34,544 bases of DNA from the NCBI GenBank assembly GCA_038065595.1, contig JBBTQR010000011.1, positions 1-34,544 on the forward strand, read 5' to 3'. The stretch's first letter is position 1. The number at the start of each line of letters is the position of its first letter. This DNA is from Patescibacteria group bacterium. Its GTDB lineage: Bacteria; Patescibacteriota; Minisyncoccia; Sungbacterales; JBBTQR01. Below are positions 3,001 to 34,432 of the stretch, piece after piece. A program made the translations under genes and the position numbers. The notes beneath the pieces were generated by a model, which did not search any database, had not been told where the DNA came from, and saw nothing but the letters and a program-made list of their open reading frames with translations.

Positions 3001-3027
3001 GTGTTTTTTGCTGGGAGTCGTAAACAT
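1..3027 (-). CDS. Membrane-anchored S8 (subtilisin-family) serine protease, >1009 aa, 3' end beyond the window edge
   Basis: Not in the ORF track because there is no stop in the window. Manual translation from ATG 3027 (overlapping the upstream TAA) stays open to base 1. Catalytic motifs: VIVGVVDFG (Asp ~1095), GHGTQVTGII (His ~972), VINMSFG, VVSAGN, SGTSASAP (Ser ~336). Also a hydrophobic N-terminus, a beta-rich N-domain, a propeptide-like segment and 4 predicted TM helices before the catalytic domain. Confidence 0.92.
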   Translation of the reverse strand, partial: MFTTPSKKHHIISAFAIGGIAFVAFNFSGTPLFGSTDQFVLFAQEEIKLEQDTQVSSGDVGSNGKIDIEKDIIVNGNLFADTITIDKNTSINGNASFNKLKLHKDSQILGTQTNRIQLPIANLPEIPEFQIGTEDFKLEGTTNTLPAGNYRNITLEKNSRLTLTGGIYNIRILELKGGAVLIFNAPTTINIQFKLRGYDKVSILPGLNQKPDDLKINYLGIKPKKEKDEQEDDDDEINLLHDEKEYKDGKIGRPVIFGKNSFLNFKLLAPKANVYIEKESTVRGRIVAGKIKIGKDSILSLEQTGFKIAKPEDIITDPDGGVYPINEILVSLMPEATILDAQDIVASINGRVVGVVSSINLYQIEVSASTIQELENLINALRTNPQIDGVFRNFVVPELVFPLDGIETLSKIDEMTPAVVKIIFTTSEFLILFLTALFLSVYYLYIKRDKLYHLKIIKDKLFYSNVHFWWYVALSVIFLLFPFSWAIDLGVFRYGGVPNTNLGIPFITGGYPFDVFGLSVVGSIFNLLYVYALTFGVVYLKRNFRKRRVLIAIVLLFVLMAGGAFLIFVRFILATTPFMPAMPYLLRTFGYEAQAASQIKYDLENLRNQNSSLAKAYDIIKIQQAWDAVANATPPLSPVIVGVVDFGVEAIHQEFNFPEVNLSSVNRSLLVDFTERTFFGIRTGGHGTQVTGIIGANNRSRTAALPSDSPQMNGILSGVLSENQYTLEFKPIGGPKNTATSTLIQIAGAVEAALEKNSQVINMSFGLTKCSELSFFTRNILMQRCYKTDQEFLDDSMAYQRQLQQATSTLFVVSAGNNAIEAVHSLPGALSFLNNVITVGATNMDDKRAGFSNYGPFVGISAPVGMGIYAPAPRGRGNFPPDVPQVQRDYDQFFSGTSASAPMITGVAGLIKAVRPHLTPSQIKQVLISTGDSIQTDKPIGPRLNALNAICHPLVLNCAPQVVTGVIQGSISLEFEGGPDEGAIISLYVTKTNQRIAQTTSGAQGFYPF

Positions 3028-13998: not shown

Positions 13999-15906
13999 TT
14001 AAATATCCACGCCCCCCTTTTTCAGTTCGGATAAAATCCCTTCCTCCAGCCATGCGATTTTACCACTAACAATCGCTTCGGCAAGAAAGCTTATCTTTTT
14101 ATGGCTACCGTGTACAATCCATTTATTTCCCGACATTTTTTCTTCTCCATACATTTCTTCTCGCGTTTTGTGACAAAAAAAGTCTGCGAGTTCCCACACA
14201 AATTGTTTTTCAGGATGAGATACGGCGTATGAAAGCACGAGTGCCATGCGCCACAGATTCATAGCGCGTTCATTAAGCTGACGACCAATGCAATGCTGAT
14301 TACGCAAATCGATTCCATACCGCATACCTGCTCGAATTGTATTGAGAGCCAATCGATACGCCTCTCTGCGAATAAAAAGCCGGTGTACAAACGCCTCCCT
14401 CTGTTGTGTCGTAGTCGAAAGCATACTATCAACAAAAGCAAAAAATATTCGCGTAAAAAAATATCCACAAAGAGACCTCACCGCAATCGGTAGCACAGAT
14501 AACGCACCTGCCATCCGCTTAAGCCATCCAATACTGGAATCCTGCATGATCATGTACGCGCGGAGATATTCTTTGGACCCCTCCTTTTGAATGAGCTGTT
14601 GCATGATCGCGTTTGTACCTTCAAAATTCTTATTCACCCACGCATCACGCATATGCCGTTCCACAGAAACAGGGATCTCACCGCGAGCTTTCTGAGAATT
14701 ATAAGTTTCAAATCCAATACCGCCAAAAACCCGCATGAGCGCGTCAACCGATGCCCACAAATCTTCGGTGATAAGAAATTTAGCAGCATTCGTTTCAATC
14801 TCAATATTGATTCCACGATCTGCAAGATCATAGCAGTGCTGAAGAATTGTTTCTCCGGCAAATGTGGCGCATGCCATATTCACCAGATCTTTGGCAACAT
14901 CTTGGTGCCTATAGATTGGCTTTCGCCACTGCACGCGTTCACGGCACCGCCACCGCACCTTCTGAAGGGTCTGCTTAAGACAGCCAAGACACAACGCAGG
15001 CAAACCGATGCGCGCGGCATCAAGGCATTTTTTAACATTGGCAAATCCGTCTCCCTCAACGCCGATTAAGTTTTCCGCCGGAATATTCACATCATTGAAT
15101 TCGGACAATCCATTGTAAATGGCGCGATACCCCATGAAGTGACAGCGCTGTTTAGGAGCGAAGCCCGCCACATCGGTCGGTACGATAAAAAGACCATACC
15201 GCCTGGAATTATGTTCATCCTTTTTAATGCGTGCAAACACAGCCACATATTCGGCAAGCGCTACCCCGTCTGCCTTAATCAGACATGTGGTATACAGCTT
15301 GTGTCCATTGAGAATGTAGCCAACAATTTTCTTGCTATCGTCGTATATTCTCGTGGCAACAGTTTCGACTCGCGTTGGATCAGAGCCAGCTTGGCGCTCT
15401 GTAAGGGCAAATGCGGACATCTTTCCGTTTGCGAGTTCCCGCAGATATTTTTCCTGCTGGGCTCTCGTTCCAATCTTCATTATTGGCGTTGCGATACCAA
15501 GCGAATTAGGAGGCGAGATTAAACAGCTCACGCTTCCGTCCCATCCGCCTATCAATGTCATAACTCGTCCGTAATTCGCAGAAGAAAATTCAAGCCCTCC
15601 ATAGCGTTTCCAAATTTTAAGAGCAAAAGCCCCCATCTTTCTAAGTTCGGCAATTATCTCATCGGGAATTTCGCCTTCCATGTCAATTTTATTTGGATCA
15701 ACGCGTTCCCATAGCAAAGTTTTAAACGATTCTATCCACGGATCAGCACGTTTTTTATCTTCCTCCGATTGCTCTGGAAAATCCTTCAAAAGATCAAACC
15801 GCGCTCTTCCTAAATACAATTCTGCAAGAAAATTGCGATTAGTCGAGGCGTCCTCTCCGACCAAACGCAATGTTTCGCGAAGCTCATCAATGTCGCTTTG
15901 TGACAT
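13999..15906 (-). CDS. Acyl-CoA dehydrogenase, long (VLCAD/FadE-like) form
   Basis: YGGL, AFALTERQAGSD, LNGHKLY, R.QW.KPI, FGGIGF, MRDA and catalytic FEGTN; C-terminal extension; SD GAGGA. Confidence 0.9.
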   Translation of the reverse strand: MSQSDIDELRETLRLVGEDASTNRNFLAELYLGRARFDLLKDFPEQSEEDKKRADPWIESFKTLLWERVDPNKIDMEGEIPDEIIAELRKMGAFALKIWKRYGGLEFSSANYGRVMTLIGGWDGSVSCLISPPNSLGIATPIMKIGTRAQQEKYLRELANGKMSAFALTERQAGSDPTRVETVATRIYDDSKKIVGYILNGHKLYTTCLIKADGVALAEYVAVFARIKKDEHNSRRYGLFIVPTDVAGFAPKQRCHFMGYRAIYNGLSEFNDVNIPAENLIGVEGDGFANVKKCLDAARIGLPALCLGCLKQTLQKVRWRCRERVQWRKPIYRHQDVAKDLVNMACATFAGETILQHCYDLADRGINIEIETNAAKFLITEDLWASVDALMRVFGGIGFETYNSQKARGEIPVSVERHMRDAWVNKNFEGTNAIMQQLIQKEGSKEYLRAYMIMQDSSIGWLKRMAGALSVLPIAVRSLCGYFFTRIFFAFVDSMLSTTTQQREAFVHRLFIRREAYRLALNTIRAGMRYGIDLRNQHCIGRQLNERAMNLWRMALVLSYAVSHPEKQFVWELADFFCHKTREEMYGEEKMSGNKWIVHGSHKKISFLAEAIVSGKIAWLEEGILSELKKGGVDI

Positions 15907-16061
15907 ATTTTCCTCGCTTGTTACAATATATAAAATGACAAGATACTACATATCTCATATCGCTTATTGAGAAAAAAATCAATAGTTACCGCGTCGCGTT
16001 CCAACAACTAATCACAGAAGAAAGTATCCGCGCGTTTTTTGAACAACGGGATAAACAAAAA

Positions 16062-16092
16062 CCCACACAGACATTTGTGTGGGCGTTTTTTT
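16062..16092. terminator. Terminator hairpin after thiolase 1
   Basis: CCCACACA...TGTGTGGG flanked by an A-run and a T-run. Confidence 0.6.
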
Positions 16093-16100
16093 ACATTCGT

Positions 16101-17261
16101 TCAAATTCGTTCAATGACGCACGCAGTCGATTCGCCTCCCGCGGCGCATATTGCAACAACGCCAAAACGCAGACTCTCACTCTTAAGAAGAATAGTGAGA
16201 AGCATTACGAGAAGTACTGCGCCTGTAGCGCCAAACGGATGCCCACACGCGATGGCACCGCCCCACGGATTTACCATTTCACGCGGTATATTAAATGTTT
16301 TAATAAAATGAATCGGCGAAGGAGCAAACGCTTCATTTATTAGAAATGTATCAACATCTTTAATTGAAACACCCGCGGACAAAAGTGCTTTTTGGATCGC
16401 GCCGTTTGGAGCGGTAATAAAACTTTCAGGGTTGCCTTCGCTATAACTTTCTATGGAACGAATTATAGCGAGCGGTCTAAAACCGTGAATTTTAACCGCC
16501 TCAAGAGACGCAAGCGCTACAAACGCCGCCGCATCGCCGTACTTTGATGCGTGTGCGGGCGTAATTATTTCACAGCCCGACATCGGATCAACTTTTTGTA
16601 ACATCGCAAGCGACCGCGCTTTATCTACTCCTTCATCATGCGTCAGTATTGGCGTAGAAGCGCCAGAAAGATATATCGGAACAATAAACCGCCCATGATC
16701 ATTTTTATGATAACGCGCCCATGAGTAACTTTGCGATGCGTAAAGATCCAATTCGTAACGGCTGATACCCAACGCCCGCGCCTTACTATCGGCAAGCATC
16801 GCCATATTCTTGCCAGTCTCTGGACTTGTGAGAACGGCAACAACATCAGAATCAAAATTGCGGCTCATCATGTCAACGCCACCCGCAATCGCACAATCGC
16901 TCCGTCCAAGCATTATCTCTTCCGTTGCATCCTCGATTGCGATAAGACCCGTTGCACACGCGCCCTCGAGCGTAAGCGCGTTAATGCGCCGTTTGCGTTC
17001 TGTTCGTCCGGCCATAAGAATATGCTTTGCCGGCGCGTGAAAACTGGTCGGCTCGGTCTTCTGAGAAATAAGCGAACCCAAACGAAACATATCTACTGCG
17101 GTATGCGGAATTCCAAAACTAAAAAGATTATCGTATACAGCGCCAGCGAGTTCATGCGGTGCCAACGAAGAAATACAGCTCGTATTCTTTTTGCCATCTG
17201 TGCCGCGTTTTACTGAAGCGATTGGGGAACGAGAAGCTCCAACAATAAACACATCTTTCAT
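16101..17261 (-). CDS. Thiolase (acetyl-CoA C-acyltransferase) 1
   Basis: GACATG (nucleophile Cys), INEAF, GGAIACGHPFGATG and ICAAGG. ATG 17261 follows the SD GGAGG. Confidence 0.88.
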   Translation of the reverse strand: MKDVFIVGASRSPIASVKRGTDGKKNTSCISSLAPHELAGAVYDNLFSFGIPHTAVDMFRLGSLISQKTEPTSFHAPAKHILMAGRTERKRRINALTLEGACATGLIAIEDATEEIMLGRSDCAIAGGVDMMSRNFDSDVVAVLTSPETGKNMAMLADSKARALGISRYELDLYASQSYSWARYHKNDHGRFIVPIYLSGASTPILTHDEGVDKARSLAMLQKVDPMSGCEIITPAHASKYGDAAAFVALASLEAVKIHGFRPLAIIRSIESYSEGNPESFITAPNGAIQKALLSAGVSIKDVDTFLINEAFAPSPIHFIKTFNIPREMVNPWGGAIACGHPFGATGAVLLVMLLTILLKSESLRFGVVAICAAGGESTACVIERI

Positions 17262-17455
17262 GGCACCCTCCAAAATATTAAATTATCAAAAAACAAGATT
17301 CTATCAGAACCATACACCATAGTTAGAAAAAATTGCAAGACAATGTGGTAATGCGCACACACATGTGGCGGTTTTCGAATAAACTCCGAGAACGAGCATG
17401 CACATGGTTGAAACAATATAAAAAAGGCCACCCTCATCGGGCGGCACAACATAAT

Positions 17456-18622
17456 TTATACCATTTCAAATATCATAGCCGTCGCCTCGCTAATAGCATT
17501 ACATACAACGACAATTCCGTAACGCTTTTTCATCTTCCTGCATATCATGATATTTTTTACAGCAAGACATCCGCCAGTCGCTCCGATTGGATGCCCGTGC
17601 GCGATGGCACCGCCACATGGATTTATTTTTTCGTGCGGTACGCCACATTTTTTCATCACATAAAGGCTCGAGGTCGGAAAAGCTTCATTGATTTCCCAGT
17701 AATCAATCTCGTCTGCTTGTAATCCCGCCACAGCAAGAGCTTTTATAGCCGCTCCAGCAGGGGCAATGATAAAATCTTTTGGGTCTTCTTCGCTATGTTC
17801 AGCAAAAGCAACAATGCGAGCAAGTGGTCGGAGATTTTTTTCACGAACCGCGTTTTCCGACGCAAGCATAAGAAAAGCCGCCGCGTCGCCATATTTTGCA
17901 GAATTGAGAACGGTCATAATCTTGCATCCGGGATAAGGACGAATCTTTGACAAAACCTTGAGTCGATTGCCGTATTTTTCGATCTCCGTGTCATAGGTAA
18001 GAACCGGCATTTCGACACCAAGAAGACGAATTGGCACAAGCGCGTGATCATGCGCAGTTGCCTTCGCACGCTCATATGACGCAAGCGCACACGCGTCATG
18101 CGCCTCCCGTCCAAAGCCGTCTCCAAGCTCTAAAGCTTTTTGATCGGCGAGTTGCGCCATCAGCTTCCCCGTGGTCGGATCAGTAAGGCCGTTTAAAATA
18201 ACGCCATTTGCTTGTCGGCTCATCATGTCAACACCGCCAGCAATCGCAATCTCTGCTTTTCCAATTATAATCTTTTTTGCCGCACACCAAATTGACACGA
18301 GTCCAGTCGAACACGCTTTCTCAACTGTTCGAGCAATAACAGGTATGTTCTGCCCTAATGTTGCACGACGAAAAACAAACTTTGCAGGGGCTTGATACAT
18401 AGACCGTTCAACTTTTTGAGATATTGCGGAACCCATAAAAAAGAATTGAATATTCATGGGATCAATCGAGCTTTCCCGTATCAGGTGTCGCAGTACCTGC
18501 TCCCCTAATTCAACCGGAGATAAAGAACTGATTACGCTTGTATTCACAATTTCATCAGTATTGCCTGCCTGTACCGAAGCAATGGGCGAACGAGCAGTGC
18601 CAACAACATAGACAGCGTTCAT
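17456..18622 (-). CDS. Thiolase 2 (paralog of thiolase 1)
   Basis: KACSTG, EINEAF, GGAIAHGHPIGATG and VCNAIS. ATG 18622 follows the SD GGAGG. Confidence 0.88.
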   Translation of the reverse strand: MNAVYVVGTARSPIASVQAGNTDEIVNTSVISSLSPVELGEQVLRHLIRESSIDPMNIQFFFMGSAISQKVERSMYQAPAKFVFRRATLGQNIPVIARTVEKACSTGLVSIWCAAKKIIIGKAEIAIAGGVDMMSRQANGVILNGLTDPTTGKLMAQLADQKALELGDGFGREAHDACALASYERAKATAHDHALVPIRLLGVEMPVLTYDTEIEKYGNRLKVLSKIRPYPGCKIMTVLNSAKYGDAAAFLMLASENAVREKNLRPLARIVAFAEHSEEDPKDFIIAPAGAAIKALAVAGLQADEIDYWEINEAFPTSSLYVMKKCGVPHEKINPCGGAIAHGHPIGATGGCLAVKNIMICRKMKKRYGIVVVCNAISEATAMIFEMV

Positions 18623-18761
18623 AAAGCCTCCGTTTACAGCGTGTAAATGATCTATTACTATAAGTAGCAAATTTCAGAAAAAAAACAAACAAAAAACACG
18701 GGCAGCGCCTTGTACGCGTTTTCCCGTGTTTGATATAAAAGTTTTTTCGCTTTATATCAAA

Positions 18762-19070
18762 TTATATATCGGCAATTTCTTCTTTGACCGCTCGAATGCT
18801 TTCTTCTGACCACAGCGACTCAGGGATGTCATTTCCATTCACATCAACAAGTTTTAAAAATGTTATTGGCTGGACCAAACACTGGTCTTGAGCTCTTTCT
18901 ACATATACCCGCTCACAATTACCAACTTTATATATATACAATGGAATCTGAGTTCCGGCAGAATCTTCAAATACATCACAGCTTTCATAACGAAATATTA
19001 ACGCACTGTCTAGCATAAATCGCACCCAATCATTTAATCCGCCAACCTCCGCAAAAGAATCGCGTTCCAT
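18762..19070 (-). CDS. Hypothetical acidic protein (~102 aa)
   Basis: ATG 19070 is preceded by AAGGAGG, and a hairpin follows at 18694-18731. No recognisable motif. Confidence 0.6.
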   Translation of the reverse strand: MERDSFAEVGGLNDWVRFMLDSALIFRYESCDVFEDSAGTQIPLYIYKVGNCERVYVERAQDQCLVQPITFLKLVDVNGNDIPESLWSEESIRAVKEEIADI

Positions 19071-19219
19071 GACATATCCTCCTTGGTTTGATTTTGACAA
19101 AGAACACGCTCTACGCTGAATTACTAATCACTCTATACTCTCTCAAAGCAAAAAAATCAAGCTCGATTACATAGGGTGTTTTTAATTTAAAATTGGTTTA
19201 CAAATTAACTAATGAAGCT

Positions 19220-19243
19220 CCTCGGGGCAAAGCCCCGAGGTAT
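19220..19243. repeat. REP-like palindrome CCTCGGGGC-AAA-GCCCCGAGG-TAT
   Basis: Perfect 9-bp stem. The 17-mer GCAAAGCCCCGAGGTAT (19227-19243) recurs at 34507-34523. Confidence 0.7.
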
Positions 19244-19554
19244 ACATCACAACTCGCTCCGCTCGTACAAACGCGCGGCACAGACCGGCGCGGTATTGAC
19301 CTTTGTTGTGTCGTACATTCAGCCTGCTGGCTTCAGTATTTCCTCACTCTCGTTCGGTCATCGCACGCTGACGAGATAAAATTGTTTTTTTATCTCGCTC
19401 ATCGCTAGCCACAATAAAGCTGACCCCCTGAACGCACTATCGTATGCGGTTATATTTATGATATATGCCAGCTGACCTCATGCGTGCTCAAAATAACGAA
19501 ACCGCGAATTATTTGGCAATAAGTTCTAACCTTCCGCTTGACTGGACAAAAAAA

Positions 19555-19574
19555 TCCGCGGGCTTGCCCGCGGA
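19555..19574. repeat. REP-like palindrome or terminator TCCGCGGGC-TT-GCCCGCGGA
   Basis: Perfect 9-bp stem with an upstream A-run (U-tail for the minus-strand gene). Confidence 0.6.
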
Positions 19575-19603
19575 GACTTATATTTCATAATTAAAAATGC
19601 GCG

Positions 19604-20014
19604 CTACCCGTTTCCCAAAAGACAGGCGTCTTCATATGAGCAACTAGTCGTGTGAGTCAAAGGTTCTAGGCCGACCGCGCACCACCGCTCCGCCGCAATA
19701 AATGCTCGCCGATCATTCTTATTTTTTATACACCATTCTGCTTCAGTAAGAAGCAAACTTGCGGCGTAAATTCGCGCAAGCCTATATGACAGAGTGCGGG
19801 CATTTGCTTTTAGCAGTTGGCGCGGATAGGCTCGAATCGTTTCAGTGTATCGCGCGAATTGCCGTGAAGAATTGCGGATATCAAGAGCAAGATCCTGCAA
19901 TTCCGGCGACTGAACGCTGGCTATATTTTTTTCGATATCGGCAAATAAACATTGAAGAGCGTTTGATTTTTGAATAACCCGCAACGCATCAAGGCTTAAC
20001 ACATTGGTTGTTCC
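19604..20014 (-). pseudogene. C-terminal fragment of an AidB-like acyl-CoA dehydrogenase
   Basis: The frame reads GTTNVLSLDALR, i.e. the WEGTTNVLSLD motif without W-E, followed by the helical C-terminus. There is an in-frame TAG at 20024-20026, and the whole N-terminal region is absent. Confidence 0.72.
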
Positions 20015-20027
20015 ATACGAAAACTAT

Positions 20028-21115
20028 CATTTGATGGGGTTCGGGGAATCTGCAACGGTATACCCCGATTTGAAAATGTTTTTATTCCGAGTGAAAATCT
20101 CCTTAGCTCCGAAAACGATGGGCTTCGCATTACCCTCTCAACATTAACTGTCGGCCGTTTAACGCTTCCCGCCGCATGTTTAGGAGGGATGAAGCAGTGC
20201 GTATGGCTTTCACGCGTATGGGCAAAAAAACGCGTTCAGTGGAATAAATCGGTCGGCGAACACACGCTTGTCGGTGAAAAAATTGTCCGCATGGCATCGC
20301 GAACTTTTGCGCTTGAAGCAATAATGGCCGCTTGTGGTATGTGGGCGGATCAAAAATTTGATGTACGCCTAGAATCGGCGGCGTCAAAAATTTTAGGAAG
20401 TGAATGGCACTTAAATACGGTGCACGATGCGTTTCAAATTCGTGGCGGACGAGCATTTGCTGATCAAAAATCGCAAGCGATGATTGACGGCTCCTGCGTT
20501 CCGCTTGCGCAAATGCTTCGCGACGCACGCATCAATCTTATTTGGGAAGGAACGAGTGAAATTCTTCGTGTGTGGCTTGGACGAGAAGGAATGGATGAGT
20601 ATAAAAAACTTGGCGAAGGCATTAAATCGGGACCATACATTCAAAAACTTATCTGTTTAAATAAATTTGTTATTCGTTATGCTTCCTCAAAAATTCCAAA
20701 ATGTTTTGTTTCACAAAAATACAAAAACACACCGTTTTATAACGAGATGCTTTTTGTGGAAACAGCGACAAAAGACCTCACGCATACAGCTCTGCGCGTA
20801 TTAGTAAAACACCAGGAGAAGCTACGGGTTAAACAAATAGTCCTTAAAGAACTTGTTGATTTCTCACTCTGGCTCTTTGCCGTCTCGTCGCTTGCGTGGT
20901 ACGCAAGTCTCCCAGAAATTCAAAAACGACCACTCTCAAATGAACTTGCGCAGTTCTTCTTTCAAGAAGCGCGCGATGCAATGTACCCAAAACATTCACT
21001 CGCGGAACGCGCACTTAAAAGCACAAAAGACTCCGATATATACGAAATTGTTAAAAACATTCTTGACGGTAAAGCCGACTGGCTCGAAGAAGGGATCCTT
21101 AAAATTCCTCAATAA
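20028..21115 (+). pseudogene. 5'-truncated acyl-CoA dehydrogenase, paralog of 13999-15906
   Basis: The frame upstream of ATG 20189 continues RGICNGIPRFENVFIPSENLL..DGL..TL..GRLTLPAACLG, matching the paralog's RAIYNGLSEFNDVNIPAENLI..DGF..ARIGLPALCLG. The preceding HLMG is one base out of frame. WEGTSEI and WLEEGIL are retained. Confidence 0.8.
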
Positions 21116-25493: not shown

Positions 25494-27065
25494 TCACCTT
25501 TCTTTTGGAGTACGCCAAAAACCCATATATTTCCCAAACATAAGCCGTGTCTGCGCATCAATACCTGGAATTGCGCCAAAAAAGATAATCGTAATCGGAA
25601 GTGAAAACCATTGCACAACAATCCATGTATATGATCGCCATGTGTAATCCTTCGGTAATGGCGGCAAAAGACGCAACGCAACGATAGACGATGAAATAAC
25701 TCCAAACATAGACGCTGTCATAAGAAAACGAGTCATGCGGGGGACATTGTATGAAAGCACGCTCGTATTAAAAATATCACCGCCAAACATAATCGGAAAC
25801 CATCCAAAAAGAAAAATGATGAGCGCGTTGGTACCCCACGACCAAAATCCCTCAAGCTGATTGAACGCAAAACGAAATTTCGTGCGTTTTGGAATTTTTT
25901 TATTTTTCATAAACCCAAAAAACGCATAGGGAATATTTTCTATCCCCCACCCCCAACGCCGTTGTTGTTTATAAATATTTTTTGCAGTTTGTAAAATATT
26001 TTTCCCGACATTGGCGTCCATTGAAACGGGGTAATACAATGGCTCAACCTTCCATCGTCCATCATAAAAAAGAAGCGCTTGCCAAAAAATTCGTGAGTCC
26101 TCTGAAACGATATTTACATGCCAAAAATCCATCTCAACAAGAGCTTTAAACGGCATTGAATGCGATGAAAATGTCGTAAGCCGTTCGGGGCGCGTTTGTT
26201 GCATCATCTGCCAAAATGTACCGGAATACGCAACGATACGCGAAAGACCATGCGCTAACCAAATATTGTTATTGTATACGGGAATCGGTTGAAATGATGA
26301 ATGAAGTGGATCCCGCGTTGTAAGATAATAATACGCCACAATCGCGAAGTATTGAGGGTAAATCTGCGTATCGCTGTCAAGAGATGAAACAATAATATTT
26401 TCGTATGGAATGTTCAGTGGATCAATAATTTCTTCTTTTACTTTCCGCGCGGCATAGGTTTCGTTTGCTCCCTTACCTGAGAGCTCTCCGCCAACCCCAG
26501 ACGGATGATGCGTAACAAGGAATTTAAAAAAACCGCTCTTATATTTCGCCTCAAGCTCCTCGGCGATTTGACGGTCTTGAATTCCGCCCGCTTCTTCCAT
26601 CGCCAAAACCATAATTATCTTCTTCACGGGATATGTTGATTCAAGAATCTTTATGATTGCTTCTTCTATAATCGCCTTTGGTTCCAGAAAACACGGGAGG
26701 ATAACACACTGATACACATCTTCCCACGAAGACGCGTTTAATTCGTTTGTGGAAAGTTTTAATCCGCGCACCCGCTCCATCCAATCAATAGCCATATGTT
26801 CCTTCATTTTTTTATATGAGGCGCGAATATGTATTGAAAAAAATACCGTCTTTAGGAGCCAGTACACATCAAACGCGATTATGAAAAAACTCGCCCATAT
26901 CGGATAGAGCCACGAAAGAATGATAAGTGCAATAAATGTTCCCCAAATTAAAAGCCCCGGCAAAACCTCAAAAAAGCGGTATAAAAAATAATCCATTGAC
27001 CCGCGCGGAAGATCAGTGGCATAGCCGAATTTAAGATAATATTTATTTGCGTCTTCCATATGCAT
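25494..27065 (-). CDS. Membrane-bound processive-type GT2 glycosyltransferase
   Basis: GKGAN, LDSD (DxD), SED and QQRRWGWG (QxxRW); TM helices at both ends. Confidence 0.88.
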   Translation of the reverse strand: MHMEDANKYYLKFGYATDLPRGSMDYFLYRFFEVLPGLLIWGTFIALIILSWLYPIWASFFIIAFDVYWLLKTVFFSIHIRASYKKMKEHMAIDWMERVRGLKLSTNELNASSWEDVYQCVILPCFLEPKAIIEEAIIKILESTYPVKKIIMVLAMEEAGGIQDRQIAEELEAKYKSGFFKFLVTHHPSGVGGELSGKGANETYAARKVKEEIIDPLNIPYENIIVSSLDSDTQIYPQYFAIVAYYYLTTRDPLHSSFQPIPVYNNNIWLAHGLSRIVAYSGTFWQMMQQTRPERLTTFSSHSMPFKALVEMDFWHVNIVSEDSRIFWQALLFYDGRWKVEPLYYPVSMDANVGKNILQTAKNIYKQQRRWGWGIENIPYAFFGFMKNKKIPKRTKFRFAFNQLEGFWSWGTNALIIFLFGWFPIMFGGDIFNTSVLSYNVPRMTRFLMTASMFGVISSSIVALRLLPPLPKDYTWRSYTWIVVQWFSLPITIIFFGAIPGIDAQTRLMFGKYMGFWRTPKER

Positions 27066-27111
27066 CTATACTATCATATTTTTAATTATGAAGCGTTCCA
27101 ATCTCAAAAAT

Positions 27112-27134
27112 AAAAAAGCCCCATGAGCTGGGGC
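27112..27134 (-). terminator. Terminator after pafA
   Basis: GCCCCA/TGGGGC stem with a U-tail on the minus strand. Confidence 0.6.
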
Positions 27135-27140
27135 ATGTGC

Positions 27141-28673
27141 TTAAAAATCCTGTGGCTTTGTAAACCGAGCGAATGGATCATCAAGTACAAAATCAAAACA
27201 GTCTCCGTTATTATCGCGTCCTTTTACAAGGTTCCAATTCATAGAGTCAACACTGCCACCCAACTTCTTTAGATAATCGCAATATTTTCTCCGTGTTTCA
27301 GCGCGAGTTCTGTGTGGCGGATTTTCTTTTGCAAAAGCAACTTCACCTGACGATACAATACGCTCCATTGAAAGTTTTTGAAATATCCCCTGCGTTCGCG
27401 AGAGACGGTGATACTCCAACTCCCAAAACCCTAAGCGCCCACCGACCGTCATCAATTGCAATGAGCCGTCCTTTTTCAAAATCTTAATACAATCATTGTA
27501 AGATGAGCGCCAAGAATATCCGTATTTTTCCATATCACGCAAAATGAGAAATAACTTTGCGGAAACATCCGTATACCTTGCCAATTTTTCATGCGGATTA
27601 TCTAACGCAATAAGATCAAGAATTTTTCGCCACCACTCAAGCGTCCATAAAATATCTGGGGTGCGTTCCGCGTATCCTTTACCCACATACTCCTCCGCAA
27701 GCCCAAGAAACATAAGCTGAAGATCGAGTGCCGAATAATTACCATTAGAAAATTTATAAATCTTCCGAAGTGTCCTATCTCCCGAAAATAGGCTATACGC
27801 ATCCCTCATTTCATCCAAACGATAGATCGGTACTTTGCCATCAAGACACCCATCTTCAATCATCCGGACTATAAGGGCGGTAGTACCAAACTTCAATCTG
27901 CTTGAAACCTCTGCCAGATTAGCGTCACCGCCGACAATATGGACACGATACCACTTATCTGAACGCGCGTGAGACTCATCGCGAGTATTAATAAGCGGTT
28001 TAAACTCCCCCGTTGTACCGCATAAAATCAATTCGCCGGTACCAAGCTCTCTTTGAGAAAGGCGATATTCTGAATGGCCACCCCTCCAATGCACAATTCC
28101 TGATCCCTGCCAAATAATCCGCGAAATAAGATGCACAAGAAGGATGCTCTGAAAATTGGACATTGCGTGGGGTGAACTAACGCTTTCTCTTCGTACAAGA
28201 TGATTCTCGTGCTCACCGTACATATGCCTTCCACAAATATCAATAGAATTTCTATACAAACGAATAATCTCCGCTCCGGGTTTTAAATGTCTTTCCACAA
28301 CATACCCCCTGAGATCGTCCCGTACCTCGCGATCAAATAATTGCGTCCCATCGTTCGTGAAAAGCGCTTGCCAAAGCAGGTCGTTCACTCCTTCAACCGC
28401 ATCAATAAGAATTTCATCTCCCGCTTTCTGCCATATCAGAACATCCCGTGAAGTTTCGCATTCGGGAGACGCATACTCTATATGACTTCCGGTATCCATA
28501 TACAAACGCCCCATATTGGAAAGCCAATAATCGTGTGAAAGAGATTGCCCTTTCACACGCATAAGATACCGAGAAGCACAATCAAATAAAAGTGTCCTAC
28601 TAAAAGGTCTTGAAAGAAAAAAATCTGGACTTACGCCATACTCCTTTTCAAGGCCCTGAATATGCGAGCGCAT
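27141..28673 (-). CDS. pafA: Pup/UBact-protein ligase homolog (PafA)
   Basis: GLEKEYG, GRLYMDTGSHIEYASPEC, YGEHENH, LSQR, PLINTRDESHA, RVHIVGGDAN and C-terminal W...DPF. It lacks the Dop loop. Start taken as ATG 28673. Confidence 0.85.
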   Translation of the reverse strand: MRSHIQGLEKEYGVSPDFFLSRPFSRTLLFDCASRYLMRVKGQSLSHDYWLSNMGRLYMDTGSHIEYASPECETSRDVLIWQKAGDEILIDAVEGVNDLLWQALFTNDGTQLFDREVRDDLRGYVVERHLKPGAEIIRLYRNSIDICGRHMYGEHENHLVRRESVSSPHAMSNFQSILLVHLISRIIWQGSGIVHWRGGHSEYRLSQRELGTGELILCGTTGEFKPLINTRDESHARSDKWYRVHIVGGDANLAEVSSRLKFGTTALIVRMIEDGCLDGKVPIYRLDEMRDAYSLFSGDRTLRKIYKFSNGNYSALDLQLMFLGLAEEYVGKGYAERTPDILWTLEWWRKILDLIALDNPHEKLARYTDVSAKLFLILRDMEKYGYSWRSSYNDCIKILKKDGSLQLMTVGGRLGFWELEYHRLSRTQGIFQKLSMERIVSSGEVAFAKENPPHRTRAETRRKYCDYLKKLGGSVDSMNWNLVKGRDNNGDCFDFVLDDPFARFTKPQDF

Positions 28674-28864
28674 GAAGACATCCCCTCTCTTTATTTTAAA
28701 GATCAATCAATTCGCAAAAGCCATAAAAGCATAGATAAAAAACACTACAAAAGCAACACGCGCGCTAAGTTTCAAATAATGAATACTCCACATTGCTTTA
28801 TTAATAATACTCAAAAAAAATCCGTCCTAAGATTATCAAAGAACGGTATTTTCAATTAACTCAA

Positions 28865-30532
28865 TTAGTGAGGGCATTCATCATCCAAAGACAACCGCTT
28901 TGGAACTTCGCCCGACGACTCGTTTGCTGGCAATGACTTGACTGACGGATATCGAGGCTCAATGCTCGCAATACCACTTCGCATAGCTTCAACGACAAAC
29001 CCTTTCCACGGAAGCAAAAAAAGTTTTTTATCTTCATCGCGCCATTTACAGGTTGGATCAGAAAAAACAAGCGTTTTCTCTCCGTCCAACGGATCCTTCA
29101 GATATATTTTATCCCAATAATTTGAACTTATTATATTCTCCGCGTATGTTCGCGTGGTTTCAACAATAAATCGAGAACGAGTTTTCGGCGTATTCACACA
29201 CGCGCCACCAATCATTCTTTCGGATACAAGTTTTTTTTCTTGCGCGAACGGTGCCTTCGGACCTCTGAAAAAAAGTCCGTCTGTATGGTCGTTGTCATGA
29301 TACAGATAATCGCGAACCGCAACCTCTGCGCTTTTCCACGACTTTCCTGATTTTGCGATATACGCATCAAGCAAATAAAACTTCGTTACCCAATCAAGTT
29401 TTCCATAAAGCGCGGGAAAGTCCTTTTTCTCAAGACAATCGGAAATATCAGAAAAAAATCGCATAAGCAATTTTAAACCTCTTTGTTTCGGATAACGCCG
29501 AAGAATATACTCGCCGAAATAATCCCGATATTTCTGTAAAATATATGTGATACTTCGTTGTTTTGTTGACCCCACAATGTCATATTTTTCTTCAAATTTC
29601 ATATCCCAAGAAACCCTATGAAACGCCGAAACAGGATCACAAAATTCCAGCTCGCGCGGAAATTCATTATCTTCAATCATCATCAGCGCAAGTGAGGTGA
29701 GTCCTATTTTTAGATATTCCGGCAACTGAAGCATATTCGCATCCCCCGCAATCACATGCACGCGACGAAACCGCGAGGGGTCCGCATATGGAACATCGCG
29801 AGTATTGAACAATGGACGATCGTAGGTGGTTTGAGAGCCTTGAAGCGCAGAGAAAAAATCCGCTCGCTGAGAAATCTGAAACTTAACATCATGCGACAAT
29901 AAAGTTTCGTCACACCCAACTTTCCCGGCGCCGATAATAGGGGTCCGCGCGATAAACCACGAACGACCAAGGCATTGCGTGAGACGCTCAAACGGCACAG
30001 CGCGACGGGTTGTATAATTCTCATGGCATCCAAAAGAGCTTCTGCGTTTTGCCACACTTGAGCCTCTCCATTCTTTCGGTTCACCTGCGACATTATTTCT
30101 AAACACACGAAAATGAATTCCACTGGACTCTCTCTGTTTTTTACAAAACGCGTCCACGAGCGCGTAACACGCGCGATTCCAACAAACAAGCTCCCATTCA
30201 CCAAAGCATAACGGCGTTGAAATCTCCAACTGTGATCCATCAAGGTACAGGCGCGCTCCATTTGGGAGCAACATATTTTCCGAATATTTCCATTTTGGAT
30301 CATTAAAAAAATCATGCTCCCGCGCATCTGGATCATCGGCAAGCCGTGAACTTGCGTTCCATGGAATATGCGGATGAGCGGATACAATCCACTCTGGATT
30401 AAATGTTTGAAAAAAAAGACGCCCGCTCAACGACTGCTCGTGTGTCGCTGAAAAAGGATTTGCTACCATAATTCCAAACTCTGTTTCAATTCCGCACGGA
30501 CGATTAATAATCGCGCCCGTTTCATTTTCCAT
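28865..30532 (-). CDS. dop: Pup deamidase/depupylase homolog (Dop), divergent
   Basis: GIETEFG, Dop-loop-like W......D.DAR, LPNGARLYLD, SFGCHENY, GAGKVG, FQISQRADF, NTRD, RRVHVIAGDANM and LDWVTK. ATG 30532 follows GGAGGT. Confidence 0.82.
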   Translation of the reverse strand: MENETGAIINRPCGIETEFGIMVANPFSATHEQSLSGRLFFQTFNPEWIVSAHPHIPWNASSRLADDPDAREHDFFNDPKWKYSENMLLPNGARLYLDGSQLEISTPLCFGEWELVCWNRACYALVDAFCKKQRESSGIHFRVFRNNVAGEPKEWRGSSVAKRRSSFGCHENYTTRRAVPFERLTQCLGRSWFIARTPIIGAGKVGCDETLLSHDVKFQISQRADFFSALQGSQTTYDRPLFNTRDVPYADPSRFRRVHVIAGDANMLQLPEYLKIGLTSLALMMIEDNEFPRELEFCDPVSAFHRVSWDMKFEEKYDIVGSTKQRSITYILQKYRDYFGEYILRRYPKQRGLKLLMRFFSDISDCLEKKDFPALYGKLDWVTKFYLLDAYIAKSGKSWKSAEVAVRDYLYHDNDHTDGLFFRGPKAPFAQEKKLVSERMIGGACVNTPKTRSRFIVETTRTYAENIISSNYWDKIYLKDPLDGEKTLVFSDPTCKWRDEDKKLFLLPWKGFVVEAMRSGIASIEPRYPSVKSLPANESSGEVPKRLSLDDECPH

Positions 30533-30729
30533 TGCACACCTCCACTTTTTTTCAATGAACCTCAACGAACCTATCGGATATTAATTTTAGAGTATCAGAA
30601 TAATTAGATGGAACGCAAGTTGACCAAAGTAAAAATTTTTGCAACGAATACACTAAGAATAGCAGAATAAAGCATTTCAACTGATACAATAAGCGGTTCT
30701 TTTATAATTTTTACAAAACAGGAGGAGCG

Positions 30730-32043
30730 ATGTTCAAACCGCCAAGCGACCTTGCTGATTATTACGCCGTTGTTGCGCCAAGCACCATTGATAGTGAGTT
30801 TATGATCAGACCGTCAAAGGCTGATGGCGTGTATCTATGGGAAGGCAATAAAAAATACATTGATTTTGACGCGAGCGTTGCGACTGTTCCTTTGGGACAC
30901 AAACACCCACTCGTGAATGAGGCGATTTTTAGACAATTAGATACGGTTGACTCGGTAGAATGTTCCGCGCGACCTCCAAAATTTTTTATTACCGTTGCCA
31001 ACCGTGAATATGAAATATCTCCAGAAGCATTAGGACGAAAGCTTCTTGATTCCATATTTCCAAACGAAAACGCTCGAGTCATCTATGGAGTTACTGGAGC
31101 AGAAGGCGTTAATATCGCGGTAAAATTTCTTTTGTACCAACGGCCACGGAGGCGAAGGTTTATTGCTTTTGAAGGCGCATTTCATGGACGAAAAGGATAC
31201 GCGCTGGACCTTACACTTTCAAAAGCTGAACAAAAACGGTACTACCCGACAAGCGGTATCACAGTGCTTCACCTTCCGCTCCCTAAAAAATTAGAAGATG
31301 TTGAACGAATCAAAAACATGCTTGCGCGATATCCACTTGATGAAGTAAACGCGATTTTTGTTGAAGCAATTCAAGGCGAAGGCGGAATTGAAGTTTTTGA
31401 TACAAAACTATGGCACATGCTCGCGCCAATTCTTGAAAAAAATAAAATTGCCATTGTTGCCGATGAAATCCAATGCGGTATAGGACGCACGGGCAGTATG
31501 TGGGGATTTCAATTGATTGATATACATCCCGATATTGTCGTGGCGGGTAAAGGACTTGCAAACGGCACCCCAATAAGCGTTGTTGCGTATAAGCGGAAAC
31601 TTGAAAAAAAGCTCCTTACAAATGGATGGGATGCCGGAACATTCCCAGGGCATCCAACAGCGCTCGCAGCAGGAACAATAACATTTTCTATTATTCAAGA
31701 AGAAAAAACACATGAGCATATACTGGAAATGAGCAAATATCTTTCGCATAAACTTGAATTTGCCATTCCTAAAAAATACGATGGCGAAAATCATTATTGC
31801 GTCTTAAAGGGCGCTGGACTTATGCAAGGAATAGAGTTTCGCAATTTTGATGATACGCCCGACCCAAAAACCCGTGAAATCGTATTGCGCGCAATGAAAA
31901 ATTGGGGGATACTCACTATTCCATGCGGACACTCAAGCATTAACCCGACAATCCGCCTTCTTCCGCCCTATCTCATTCAAAAAGAACACATTGATAAGCT
32001 TATCAACTGTCTATGCGAAATATTTTCATCGTTAGAAAAATGA
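30730..32043 (+). CDS. Class III PLP-dependent aminotransferase (ArgD/GabT-like)
   Basis: TGAEG, AFHGR, EAIQGEGG, DEIQCGIGRTG, AGKGL (PLP Lys) and GTF. Extended -10 TGATACAAT (30682-30690); SD AGGAGG. Confidence 0.9.
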   Translation: MFKPPSDLADYYAVVAPSTIDSEFMIRPSKADGVYLWEGNKKYIDFDASVATVPLGHKHPLVNEAIFRQLDTVDSVECSARPPKFFITVANREYEISPEALGRKLLDSIFPNENARVIYGVTGAEGVNIAVKFLLYQRPRRRRFIAFEGAFHGRKGYALDLTLSKAEQKRYYPTSGITVLHLPLPKKLEDVERIKNMLARYPLDEVNAIFVEAIQGEGGIEVFDTKLWHMLAPILEKNKIAIVADEIQCGIGRTGSMWGFQLIDIHPDIVVAGKGLANGTPISVVAYKRKLEKKLLTNGWDAGTFPGHPTALAAGTITFSIIQEEKTHEHILEMSKYLSHKLEFAIPKKYDGENHYCVLKGAGLMQGIEFRNFDDTPDPKTREIVLRAMKNWGILTIPCGHSSINPTIRLLPPYLIQKEHIDKLINCLCEIFSSLEK

Positions 32044-32133
32044 CCTGTTAATAATTTCTGTAGTTAAGTTTTCCGCAAAAAATTATATTACTTATTTCTC
32101 ACTACTGAAAATAGCCAAAACAAAAAAGAAAAA

Positions 32134-32165
32134 GCCGCGCACTCGCTAAAAGCGAAATGCGCGGT
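32134..32165. terminator. Hairpin between convergent genes
   Basis: GCCGCGCA...TGCGCGGT with inner TCGCT/AGCGA, flanked by A-rich and T-rich sequence. Confidence 0.65.
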
Positions 32166-32196
32166 TATTTTTTACCAAATAATTCTAAATTAAAAC

Positions 32197-34041
32197 TTAA
32201 AGATAGTGGCCAGGGGTAACAGTTTCAACTATTTTTACTTCTTCAAGTTCCTTCCTTCTATCCGAAACCAGCGAGCGAATATGCACCACTTTTTCGCCAA
32301 TGCTCTGCATATCAAGCCAGCGTTGGGCATCTTCGCTTGTATTGGGAAGGTCTTCGGTCTCTGCCATTTCCTGTTCAATGGCAAGGCAAAGATCGCGAAG
32401 CATAACGCCACTGTGCTCAAGACCGCGTGAAACGACTCGTTCAATTATATTTCGTTTAGCACGATTTACGATATTTTCAAGCATAGCACCAGAAACAAAA
32501 TCTTTGAGATAGAGCGTGCGCTTACCACCACCCTGAAGCGTTAATTCAAGAATGCTATTACGCACAGTAACCCTGTGGCCATCTTCACGCATATAGAAAT
32601 ACTTTTCCTCATCAATTGCCCACAATCGTTTAACGGCTCCATCAATCAGGTATTCTATAACAGCTGTCCGTTCACCCTTAAAAGCGTCATACTCCGGCTT
32701 CCATAACGCATCTTTTGGGTCAAGATATTTCTTATGCAGTGGAATTTGTTTCTTCGTAAGGTACACGCGAAAAATTTCTTTCGCGCCTTCCAGATCAGGA
32801 CGGATAATTTTTATTTTTCTATCAACGCGTCCAGGCCGTAAAACCGCCGGATCAATAAGGTCCTGGCGATTAGAAGCAATGAGTATAAGCACATTTTTCA
32901 TTACATCAACGCCGTCAAGCTCTGAAAGAAACTGCGCGACTGCTGTCATCTCAACATCAGAAGAAATCCCTGTCCCGCGCGTTCTTAAAATCGCATCGGC
33001 TTCATCCATAAAAATAACGACGGGACATTGTTCAGTTGCTCGTTCTTTCGCGCGCGCGAACATTTCACGGATTCGTCGTTCAGTTTCACCGACGAATTTA
33101 TCAAGAAGCTGTGGACCCTTCACATTGATGAAGTACCCTTTCACTTCTTTCGTGTTGTGCGCTTCGGCGAGTTTTTTAGCGATGTGCCAAGCAACCGCTT
33201 TAGCAATAAGTGTTTTTCCGCATCCGGGAGGGCCATAGAGAAGAATGCCCTTCACCATTTCCGCACCATATTCAACAAAAAGATCCTTGTGGAGAAACGG
33301 CATTTCAATTTCTTTGCGAATACGCGAAACCTGATCGCGAAGACCTCCAATCTGCGAATATTCAATAGGCTTCACTTCTTCAAGCCAGAGCTCTTTATTT
33401 TCGGTTTTTTCAAGGCACTCAAGAATAATGCCCGAGTTCAGATCGCATAAAAGCTCGTCTCCGACGGAAAACTTCTTATCAGAGAGCGCGCCAGCAATCC
33501 CAAGAACGCGTTTTTCGTCATGATCAACGGTTACACGAACACGCGAAAGATCAATAACAGAATCAACCGTACACACCTTACCGTGTTGTTCTGGCAATCC
33601 AACGCCAACAATCGCGTTTAATTCGTTCAACAGCACTGCAACGCCCGGCACTAAATCTTTGCGCACTTCCTGCACCGGAGAAAAAACCCGCATACGCTGA
33701 CCCCTCACCATTACATCAACCGTTTCCTTTTGAAGACTTATCACGGTCGCATAGTTTTGTGGAGGCGCGGTAAGAAGCTCAATTTTTTTCTCAAGCTCTT
33801 TGGCTTTTGTCATTAATTCAGCGAACTTCCCGCGTGTCCGCAAATAAAATTCGCCCAAACCAGAAAGCTCTCGTTTGGCGTATACAATTTTATCTGAAAC
33901 AAGTTTTAACTCGGCATTCAAATCTTTTCCTAAAACTTTTTCGTTATTACCGATAATATATTTAAGATGATTTGATTGCTCAATAAGCGTTTCTGAAATC
34001 TCGTTTAAAAGGTCGTCAAAACCTCTCGCTTTCTCTGGCAT
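32197..34041 (-). CDS. arc: Proteasomal AAA+ ATPase ARC/Mpa
   Basis: N-terminal coiled coil, two OB-like domains, GPPGCGKT, KFVGETER, FMDE, RTRGTGISSDVE, SNRQDLIDPAVLRPGR, SGAMLENIV, EDLPNT and C-terminal GHYL. Confidence 0.93.
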   Translation of the reverse strand: MPEKARGFDDLLNEISETLIEQSNHLKYIIGNNEKVLGKDLNAELKLVSDKIVYAKRELSGLGEFYLRTRGKFAELMTKAKELEKKIELLTAPPQNYATVISLQKETVDVMVRGQRMRVFSPVQEVRKDLVPGVAVLLNELNAIVGVGLPEQHGKVCTVDSVIDLSRVRVTVDHDEKRVLGIAGALSDKKFSVGDELLCDLNSGIILECLEKTENKELWLEEVKPIEYSQIGGLRDQVSRIRKEIEMPFLHKDLFVEYGAEMVKGILLYGPPGCGKTLIAKAVAWHIAKKLAEAHNTKEVKGYFINVKGPQLLDKFVGETERRIREMFARAKERATEQCPVVIFMDEADAILRTRGTGISSDVEMTAVAQFLSELDGVDVMKNVLILIASNRQDLIDPAVLRPGRVDRKIKIIRPDLEGAKEIFRVYLTKKQIPLHKKYLDPKDALWKPEYDAFKGERTAVIEYLIDGAVKRLWAIDEEKYFYMREDGHRVTVRNSILELTLQGGGKRTLYLKDFVSGAMLENIVNRAKRNIIERVVSRGLEHSGVMLRDLCLAIEQEMAETEDLPNTSEDAQRWLDMQSIGEKVVHIRSLVSDRRKELEEVKIVETVTPGHYL

Positions 34042-34194: not shown

Positions 34195-34432
34195 CCGCCC
34201 ATAGCTCAACGGTTAGAGCACCGAGCTTACCAACGGCAACGAATAAAAAGTAAAACAAAATAGACGCTCTCGGTCCGTAGCTCAACGGCAGAGCAGTCGT
34301 CTTATACACGACCGGTTGTAGGTTCGAATCCTACCGGACCGAGAGCGAATATTTTGAATTTTATTTTTTGCGAGTGAACCGTTGGCACGAAGTATACCTC
34401 GGGGGTTCTTGGTTCGAATCCAAGCGGGTGGA
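34195..34432 (+). tRNA. Interrupted tRNA-Ile(UAU): 5' part 34195-34227, 165-nt insertion 34228-34392, 3' part 34393-34432
   Basis: The joined halves give a cloverleaf: acceptor CCGCCCA/CGGGTGG (one G:U, one A:C), D arm GCTC/GAGC, anticodon arm CCGAG-CT|TAT-AC-CTCGG, T arm CTTGG-TTCGAAT-CCAAG, and A73. Confidence 0.82.
34271..34342 (+). tRNA. Intact tRNA-Ile(UAU) nested inside the insertion of the outer tRNA
   Basis: Acceptor CGGTCCG/CGGACCG, anticodon arm GTCGT-CT-TAT-AC-ACGAC (anticodon 34303-34305), T arm GTAGG-TTCGAAT-CCTAC, and A73. Confidence 0.92.

Follow-up and report, generated by a model that had tools for sequence, protein, structure and literature searches.

The window analysed here is a stretch of 34,544 nucleotides, the entire contig C11 of a Patescibacteria genome (NCBI GenBank assembly GCA_038065595.1, contig JBBTQR010000011.1; genome G000 in what follows), which carries genes for an ARC-type ATPase and for two members of the Pup-ligase family, one Dop-type and one PafA-like. 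Together with a pup gene on another contig of the same genome, and with no detectable 20S proteasome core, these genes probably make up a complete and selectively maintained pupylation/ARC-unfoldase system that is independent of a proteasome, in a bacterium of the type of the candidate phyla radiation (CPR). We propose the following model for its action. The PafA-like protein would be a carboxylate-amine ligase, in which ATP would activate the C-terminal glutamate of Pup and which would join Pup to lysines of target proteins, and the Dop-type enzyme would take the tag off again. An ARC hexamer would bind the pupylated proteins and then unfold or disassemble them. Since there is no 20S core, the outcome would most likely be remodelling, disassembly or regulation of the tagged proteins and not their proteasomal degradation.

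The tag was found by a whole-genome search with Pup profiles. It is encoded on the minus strand of a separate contig (G000:C35:2995-3186), is 64 aa long and ends in ...YVQKGGE. The protein scores well above the cut-offs of both Pup models (59.9-60.4 bits against PF05639, cut-off 27; 53.0-53.3 bits against TIGR03687, cut-off 41.45) and is 38-47% identical to actinobacterial Pups, with a strongly conserved C-terminal half. The original prediction, made from the window sequence, had described tagging machinery of Pup or UBact type with no tag, and had supposed that the tag was encoded elsewhere or that a new modifier was in use. The first supposition was right. The idea of a missing tag fell with the gene on C35, and, as judged by its sequence, the tag is a canonical Pup, with no sign of UBact or of a new modifier. 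Because this Pup ends in glutamate, a deamidation step would be unnecessary. The whole-genome search returned this one Pup and exactly two Pup-ligase genes. It had also been predicted that no small open reading frame (ORF) with a suitable C-terminus lies near the locus, and this holds: among ORFs of 30-150 aa, none in the window has GG[EQ] or [ST]G[EQ] as its C-terminus. Five such ORFs exist in the genome as a whole, two of them with GG[EQ], one of which is the Pup on C35.

The pup gene is therefore unlinked from dop and pafA, a linkage that is typical of the family but is not required for membership. In a second species of the same genus (G001, 97% complete), pup stands apart from dop and pafA in the same surroundings (78.7% DNA identity over 1115 bp), and we therefore regard the arrangement as a genus trait and not as an assembly fault. 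Among 62 genomes surveyed from the order, the 10 Pups found all end in GG[EQ], nine in GGE and one in GGQ. The flanks of pup (G000:C35, locus L049, 2357-3490) hold a DUF5698 gene upstream and a gene for a 168-aa protein without a family downstream, both encoding small membrane proteins, and the ORF upstream of pup overlaps the extended pup frame.

No 20S core could be detected in the source genome. Searches at E<=1 with PF00227 and at E<=10 with TIGR03690 and TIGR03691 gave no match. In one relative, G018, a divergent prcB-prcA pair lies 2.3 kb away from pafA; the best family models for its two genes are those of the bacterial 20S beta subunit (81 bits) and alpha subunit (31 bits). Used as lineage-matched queries on the source genome, the two proteins reached a best E of 0.079. 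The core was likewise not found in G001, and G026, a genome in a single contig and 100% complete, has no PF00227 match even at E<=1. Across the order, Pup-ligase genes occur in 21 of the 62 genomes, Pup in 10 and PF00227 in five, three of these at 62-86 bits and two at about 20 bits, the latter two in genomes without ligases. Nine genomes have both Pup and ligase, and PF00227 is lacking in eight of them, G026 included. Five relatives (G019, G021, G018, G026 and G010) have arc, dop, pup and pafA contiguously, with no prcBA in between. The proteasome-less state is the rule in the order, and a binning gap is an unlikely cause of it. The further supposition that a core particle is encoded elsewhere in the genome thus found no match by family models or by lineage-matched queries, so that, of the pair pup and prcAB that would have turned this into a split version of a known system, pup was located and prcAB was not. 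That the enzymes act with host components, as had also been suggested, is unnecessary to explain the locus and is unsupported here. As for other proteases, ClpP-family genes are present in the source genome, and a weak match to Lon_C was obtained (22.8 bits).

Selection has maintained these genes. In comparison with G001, the ratios of nonsynonymous to synonymous substitution rates (dN/dS, Nei-Gojobori) are 0.135 for arc, 0.172 for dop, 0.211 for pafA and 0.093 for pup, with 0.095 for a housekeeping neighbour; dS lies at 0.7-1.15, near saturation, and the values are accordingly approximate. All four genes are under purifying selection. The system is also conserved in the order, and it is concentrated there: of 401 genomes sampled evenly from the phylum, 8 have Pup-ligase genes, as against the 21 of 62 in the order.

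The domain matches confirm that arc, dop and pafA are genuine members of the ARC and Pup-ligase families, as predicted, and all three lie co-oriented on the minus strand. ARC consists of a coiled-coil N-terminus, two proteasomal-ATPase OB domains and an AAA domain (PF17758, PF16450 and PF00004), scores 503.9 bits against TIGR03689, 0.85 bit under the cut-off of 504.75, and is 84% identical to the ARC of G001. Its C-terminus reads ...TPGHYL, so that the GHYL tail had been read correctly. Tails of the G[QH]YL type are used by ARC for docking to the 20S core (PMC8223512). The tail is kept in all eight Pup-plus-ARC genomes of the order in which the ARC C-terminus is readable, and seven of these eight are without 20S; the ARC-like ORFs of G038, a genome with no Pup match, do not carry the motif. 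The tail may bind another partner, or may serve ARC itself. Outside the order, an Actinomycetes metagenome-assembled genome of 1.4 Mb (G463, locus L094) has arc, dop, pup and pafA adjacent to one another and no PF00227 match.

Which of the two paralogues removes the tag, and which attaches it? Both contain the GxExE, HEN, SQR, NTRD and GDAN motifs and the catalytic Asp, and both match PF03136 far above the Pfam Pup_ligase cut-off of 25 bits (288.4 bits for the Dop-type, 238.3 bits for the PafA-like protein). As discriminators we used those of Table 1 in Hecht et al. 2020 (PMC7947786). The best solved relative of the Dop-type protein is Dop 4b0r (167 bits), with residues 3-102 of which it is collinear through the Dop-loop region, where a Trp, an Arg and a His are conserved in seven CPR Dops. 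The spacing after its catalytic Asp is Dop-type, that is, without a one-residue insertion, and D98 and E103 are present. The PafA-like protein has no Dop-loop, its residues 4-89 being collinear, and ungapped at the loop, with residues 11-93 of PafA 4b0t, and its D-T-G-S-H-I-E, next to D-V-G-S-H-P-E in 4b0t, has the PafA-type one-residue insertion and Gly-Ser after the Asp. These features are consistent with a predicted depupylase and a putative ligase. A complex model of Pup residues 28-64 with the PafA-like protein gave an ipSAE of 0.86 (best control 0.00), a mark reached by 58 of 80 solved complexes and by 2 of 110 mismatched pairs; contact agreement between runs was at least 92% and the pLDDT of the partner at least 83. 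In the model, Pup would lie in the groove of the PafA-like protein, with its C-terminus touching residues 11-17 and 60-64 at the active site. This result may show a likeness to the solved complex 4bjr and not binding as such.

In a tree of 83 sequences, obtained by a quick search, unrooted and with long branches, the Dop-type protein falls in a CPR Dop group (seven rows; Shimodaira-Hasegawa approximate likelihood ratio test (SH-aLRT) 98) within the Dop clade (36 rows, SH-aLRT 99). The PafA-like protein belongs to a clade of its own made up of CPR sequences (20 rows, SH-aLRT 99); this clade, that of reference PafA (27 rows) and the Dop clade join at a single node. The CPR sequences group outside those of Actinomycetota, Nitrospirota and Rokubacteria in either half of the tree, a placement to be taken with caution given the long branches. 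Should the root separate Dop from PafA, the CPR sequences would be the outermost branch on both sides, which argues against a recent transfer from Actinomycetota, Nitrospirota or Rokubacteria. A search for related loci with a Dop-only alignment as query had no CPR sequence among the matches listed, and among these the Dop-type protein is 29-34% identical to reference Dop.

Some relatives carry more ligase genes than the source genome. A single Pup ligase is what has been described for Actinobacteria. G010, G022, G006 and G026 (0.9-1.2 Mb) each have 4-7 Pup-ligase-family matches at E<=1e-10, with three copies in a row at G010:C39 and two at G022:C9, and in the tree the extra copies of relatives join the CPR PafA-like clade. 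Pfam-Pup had no match in twelve genomes of the order that do have ligase genes, among them G006, G014, G038, G015 and G452, and these may use a different tag, such as UBact. G015 and G452 each have a proteasome beta-like gene.

The placement of the source organism in the CPR is indirect, and rests on four observations. The genome is small (699,755 bp in 38 contigs, 94.65% complete, 0.03% contamination), and those of its relatives span 0.5-1.2 Mb. Ribosomal protein L30 had no match in it, while all 14 control genomes matched; to our knowledge, CPR bacteria are without this protein. The nearest clusters of the glycosyltransferase downstream of pafA come from Minisyncoccota, Uhriibacteriota and Saccharimonadota, and the sequencing runs containing window DNA are labelled groundwater metagenome. 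The CPR-like character given to the genome by the original prediction is borne out by its size of 0.70 Mb, the missing L30 match and these neighbour clusters.

How does this system compare with known ones? The closest in composition is Corynebacterium glutamicum, which has ARC, Pup, PafA and Dop but no prcBA, and in which ARC is proposed to disassemble pupylated ferritin (PMC12288473, PMC8223512). Our searches of its genome as a control agree, with matches for Pup, Pup-ligase and ARC and none for PF00227. The two systems share the component set and the lack of a 20S core, and in C. glutamicum the tag is used without proteasomal degradation. Unlike that member of the Actinomycetota, the source organism is CPR-type, its pup is unlinked, its ligase lies in the CPR-only clade and a ferritin gene was not found. 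With the Mycobacterium-type locus (arc-dop-pup-prcB-prcA-pafA) the system shares the gene families, the arc, dop, pafA order, the C-terminal half of Pup, the ARC architecture and the G[QH]YL tail; in contrast to the actinobacterial Pup-proteasome system, it has no 20S core and a Pup that ends in Glu, with no deamidation needed. Of the 45 reference loci among the matches listed that have both ligase genes, 44 have dop and pafA 1.3-4.6 kb apart, compared with 191 bp here. UBact-type systems, which Lehmann et al. are said to have described in 2017 in Nitrospirota, other Gram-negative phyla and some candidate divisions, resemble it in having homologous ARC, Dop and PafA outside Actinomycetota. They differ in the tag, which here satisfies the Pup models and ends in GGE, so that no UBact tag is needed to complete the system and the UBact-type label of the original prediction is not supported. 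BLAST with the source Pup found no Pup in seven mapped Nitrospirota/Rokubacteria loci and found it in most Actinomycetota loci. In three of the former (L082, L060 and L135), prcB and prcA come immediately after dop, and a scan for C-terminal patterns recognised no UBact gene in the Nitrospirota/Rokubacteria loci, from which we draw no claim. Bifidobacterium, a further candidate for a proteasome-less precedent, was set aside on the record examined, a locus under the label Bifidobacterium breve in which pup and pafA are separated by two PF00227 genes.

Several points weigh against a complete, proteasome-independent system, those on the two paralogues being taken up in the next paragraph. The system is known here from its genes, no RNA run being listed for the stretch, and in a bin of 38 contigs at 94.65% completeness the absence of 20S is not proven for the source genome itself. 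The ferritin family has no match in this genome, against matches in 14 of 14 control genomes, so the substrate must be something other than ferritin. Retention of G[QH]YL without 20S is not predicted by a degradation-independent model, and L094, the only proteasome-less actinobacterial locus among 80 loci, though in a genome of unknown completeness, has an ARC without the GQYL tail. The CPR-only ligase clade, the tail without 20S and the lack of ferritin are left unexplained by our proposal. Could the system then be an ordinary Pup-proteasome system, a known system merely split, with prcB and prcA in the unassembled ~5% of the bin? The fragmented state of the bin, the 20S-docking tail of ARC, the prcB-prcA pair close to pafA in G018 and the beta-like genes of G015 and G452 would fit, but the core is missing as well from the 97% complete G001 and from eight of the nine Pup-plus-ligase genomes, including the 100%-complete G026; the lineage-matched queries found no match, and in relatives pafA follows directly after pup, which leaves prcBA no room. 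We therefore consider a split system very improbable. Somewhat easier to entertain, though still unlikely, is that ARC delivers its substrates through the G[QH]YL tail to a proteolytic or ring-shaped partner other than 20S, in which case tagging would stay degradative. The tail is kept in eight of eight genomes, seven without 20S, across lineages whose Dops are just 29-41% identical, it was lost by the proteasome-less actinobacterial ARC, and ClpP-family genes are at hand; yet no candidate partner has been identified, ClpP is not known to accept C-terminal tails of the HbYX type, the actinobacterial comparison comes down to one genome, and the tail may have a role within ARC.

The assignment of the two paralogues is the other point at which our proposal can be challenged. 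Both proteins score far under the equivalog cut-offs, the Dop-type with 256.7 bits against TIGR03688 (cut-off 492.3) and 203.5 against TIGR03686, the PafA-like with 201.3 bits against TIGR03686 (cut-off 551.3) and 188.1 against TIGR03688. In the Dop-type protein, here as in G001, the His of the H-x-E motif common to both families is replaced by Gln, at position 101 of the protein studied here. The PafA-like protein has one of nine PafA-type residues in its alpha-loop (PMC7947786, Table 1), resembles Dop, both actinobacterial and solved, more than it does PafA (135 against 99.8 bits), and stands in a clade of its own. It is conceivable that the paralogues are not divided as PafA and Dop at all: the PafA-like protein could be a second depupylase, a transferase or inactive, the Dop-type enzyme could ligate, or one enzyme could do both. 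In favour of such a swap, Dop outscores PafA as a match of the PafA-like protein, with the solved structures as well as in a search of 5.8 billion proteins, in which 6 of 75 matches, its own cluster counted, are at least 41% identical, and its alpha-loop fits neither type. The Dop-type protein, for its part, has D-G-S-Q-L-E where reference Dop has D-H-A-H-P-E, a PafA-like Gly-Ser after the catalytic Asp in place of the Dop-unique His-Ala and without two Dop-type His residues, and its alpha-loop matches at two of nine Table 1 positions. A Dop has moreover been converted into a ligase by 20 substitutions (PMC7947786). Against this stand the conserved Dop-loop of the Dop-type protein and its place within the Dop clade, the lack of that loop and the D-x-G-S-H insertion in the PafA-like protein, and the pafA position after pup that the latter holds in relatives; a tag ending in Glu also needs a ligase, and the genome has just these two members of the family. 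A division of labour other than the proposed one thus seems to us highly unlikely, and we retain the assignment of a putative PafA-like ligase and a predicted Dop-type depupylase within a proteasome-independent system.

The locus itself is laid out as in the following table.

Features of the arc-dop-pafA region, with positions in the window
Feature	Position	Strand	Description
arc	32197-34041	-	ARC/Mpa-type AAA+ ATPase, 614 aa
aminotransferase, class III	30730-32043	+	PF00202, 236.4 bits; between arc and dop
dop	28865-30532	-	Dop-type depupylase (predicted), 555 aa from ATG 30532
terminator-like hairpin + U-run	28813-28846	-	directly 3' of dop
pafA-like	27141-28673	-	putative Pup ligase, 510 aa from ATG 28673
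terminator-like hairpin + T-run	27108-27134	-	3' of pafA
membrane GT2-type glycosyltransferase	25494-27065	-	downstream of pafA

The dop frame is open to a TTG at 30565 (28865-30565), with the probable ATG just before the GxExE motif, and the pafA-like ORF extends over 27141-28706, its probable ATG being preceded by a purine-rich, Shine-Dalgarno-like stretch. The order of arc, dop and pafA is the actinobacterial one, as had been predicted, but the genes are not strictly contiguous, with the plus-strand aminotransferase standing between arc and dop. The empty slot in which pup, prcB and prcA would be expected is real: the gap at 28674-28864 is 191 bp long and contains neither a Pup-like frame nor 20S genes, its longest frame being of 28 hydrophobic codons. 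A Pup remnant in the gap was considered and rejected, as tblastn with Pup at E<=10 gave C35 and two chance matches. G001 has the same layout, including a dop-pafA gap without pup, and the junction is bridged by per-run contigs, with 0-1 letters different, in four of four DNA runs, which may be the source samples of the assembly and so are not independent support.

The hairpin 3' of dop has a 7-bp stem followed by eight U (minimum free energy -14.2 kcal/mol, z -1.79), and 9 of 200 shuffled sequences fold equally well; a consensus scan for terminators missed it because its loop exceeds 8 nt. G001 has a hairpin with a T-run at the same site after dop, with different letters in the stem. The hairpin after pafA, which the consensus scan did find, has six pairs, five of them G-C, and a T-rich tail. 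In the region as a whole, nine terminator-like sites were found where 8.9 are expected from shuffles, that is, no excess.

Neither of the neighbouring genes can be counted as part of the system. G001 keeps the aminotransferase in this position, in the form of two 211-aa ORFs (L041, G001:C23 5701-7029) that result from a frameshift or an assembly error, and G026 has a distantly similar class-III aminotransferase beside its second PafA-like gene; we see in the aminotransferase of the source genome a neighbour, for which no link to the Pup system is shown. The glycosyltransferase has no Pfam or NCBIfam match, and neighbouring cluster proteins carry PF13632. It follows pafA in six relatives and was considered as a Pup-system component, a candidacy that we rejected, as 35 of 41 genomes of the order have the gene, with or without Pup genes.

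Other parts of the window hold features apart from the Pup genes. Close to the contig end lies a gene for tRNA-Ile with the anticodon TAT (34270-34343, plus strand). Read depth climbs across the last 300 bases of the contig and two runs skip 165 bases at 34227-34393, which suggests a repeated or variable spot there. A cluster of acyl-CoA dehydrogenase and thiolase genes (13999-21115, with genes at 13999-15906, 16101-17273 and 17456-18670) is unusual for such a small genome; acyl-CoA-dehydrogenase fragments on both strands at 19604-21115 may be a broken gene. At the other end (1-5540, minus strand), a large subtilase of more than 1009 aa runs past the contig end, beside an 837-aa protein in which a DsbD-type membrane domain is fused to a three-domain multicopper oxidase.

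What is the relevance of this system? All its parts come from known families, and the proteasome-less arrangement has a precedent. Pupylation is regarded as a trait of Actinomycetota and Nitrospirota, sporadic elsewhere. Full-text literature searches for pupylation or Pup together with CPR, Patescibacteria or Parcubacteria returned nothing relevant, and the survey section of Hecht et al. (PMC7947786) names other phyla but no CPR lineage. As far as these searches show, proteasome-less pupylation has not been described for CPR bacteria within the literature covered. Here about 5 kb is given over, in a cell with a minimal proteome, to what would be tagging, untagging and unfolding, which offers a simple setting in which to ask what proteasome-independent pupylation is for, and the system could reveal the binding partner of the ARC tail where 20S is absent. 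The placement of the CPR sequences in the tree is relevant to the actinobacterial origin that has been proposed for the pathway, with the caution that the long branches demand. We speculate further, and only tentatively, that the CPR PafA-like proteins may represent a third functional lineage of Pup ligases, that their multiplied copies in some relatives of 1.0-1.2 Mb may be substrate-specific ligases and that the ARC tail may dock a partner other than 20S, which would make this a distinct pathway with new targets. Doubtful as this stands, if it were true, pupylation in these ultra-small and probably symbiotic cells would be a regulatory or remodelling pathway in its own right, and not a remnant of actinobacterial degradation.

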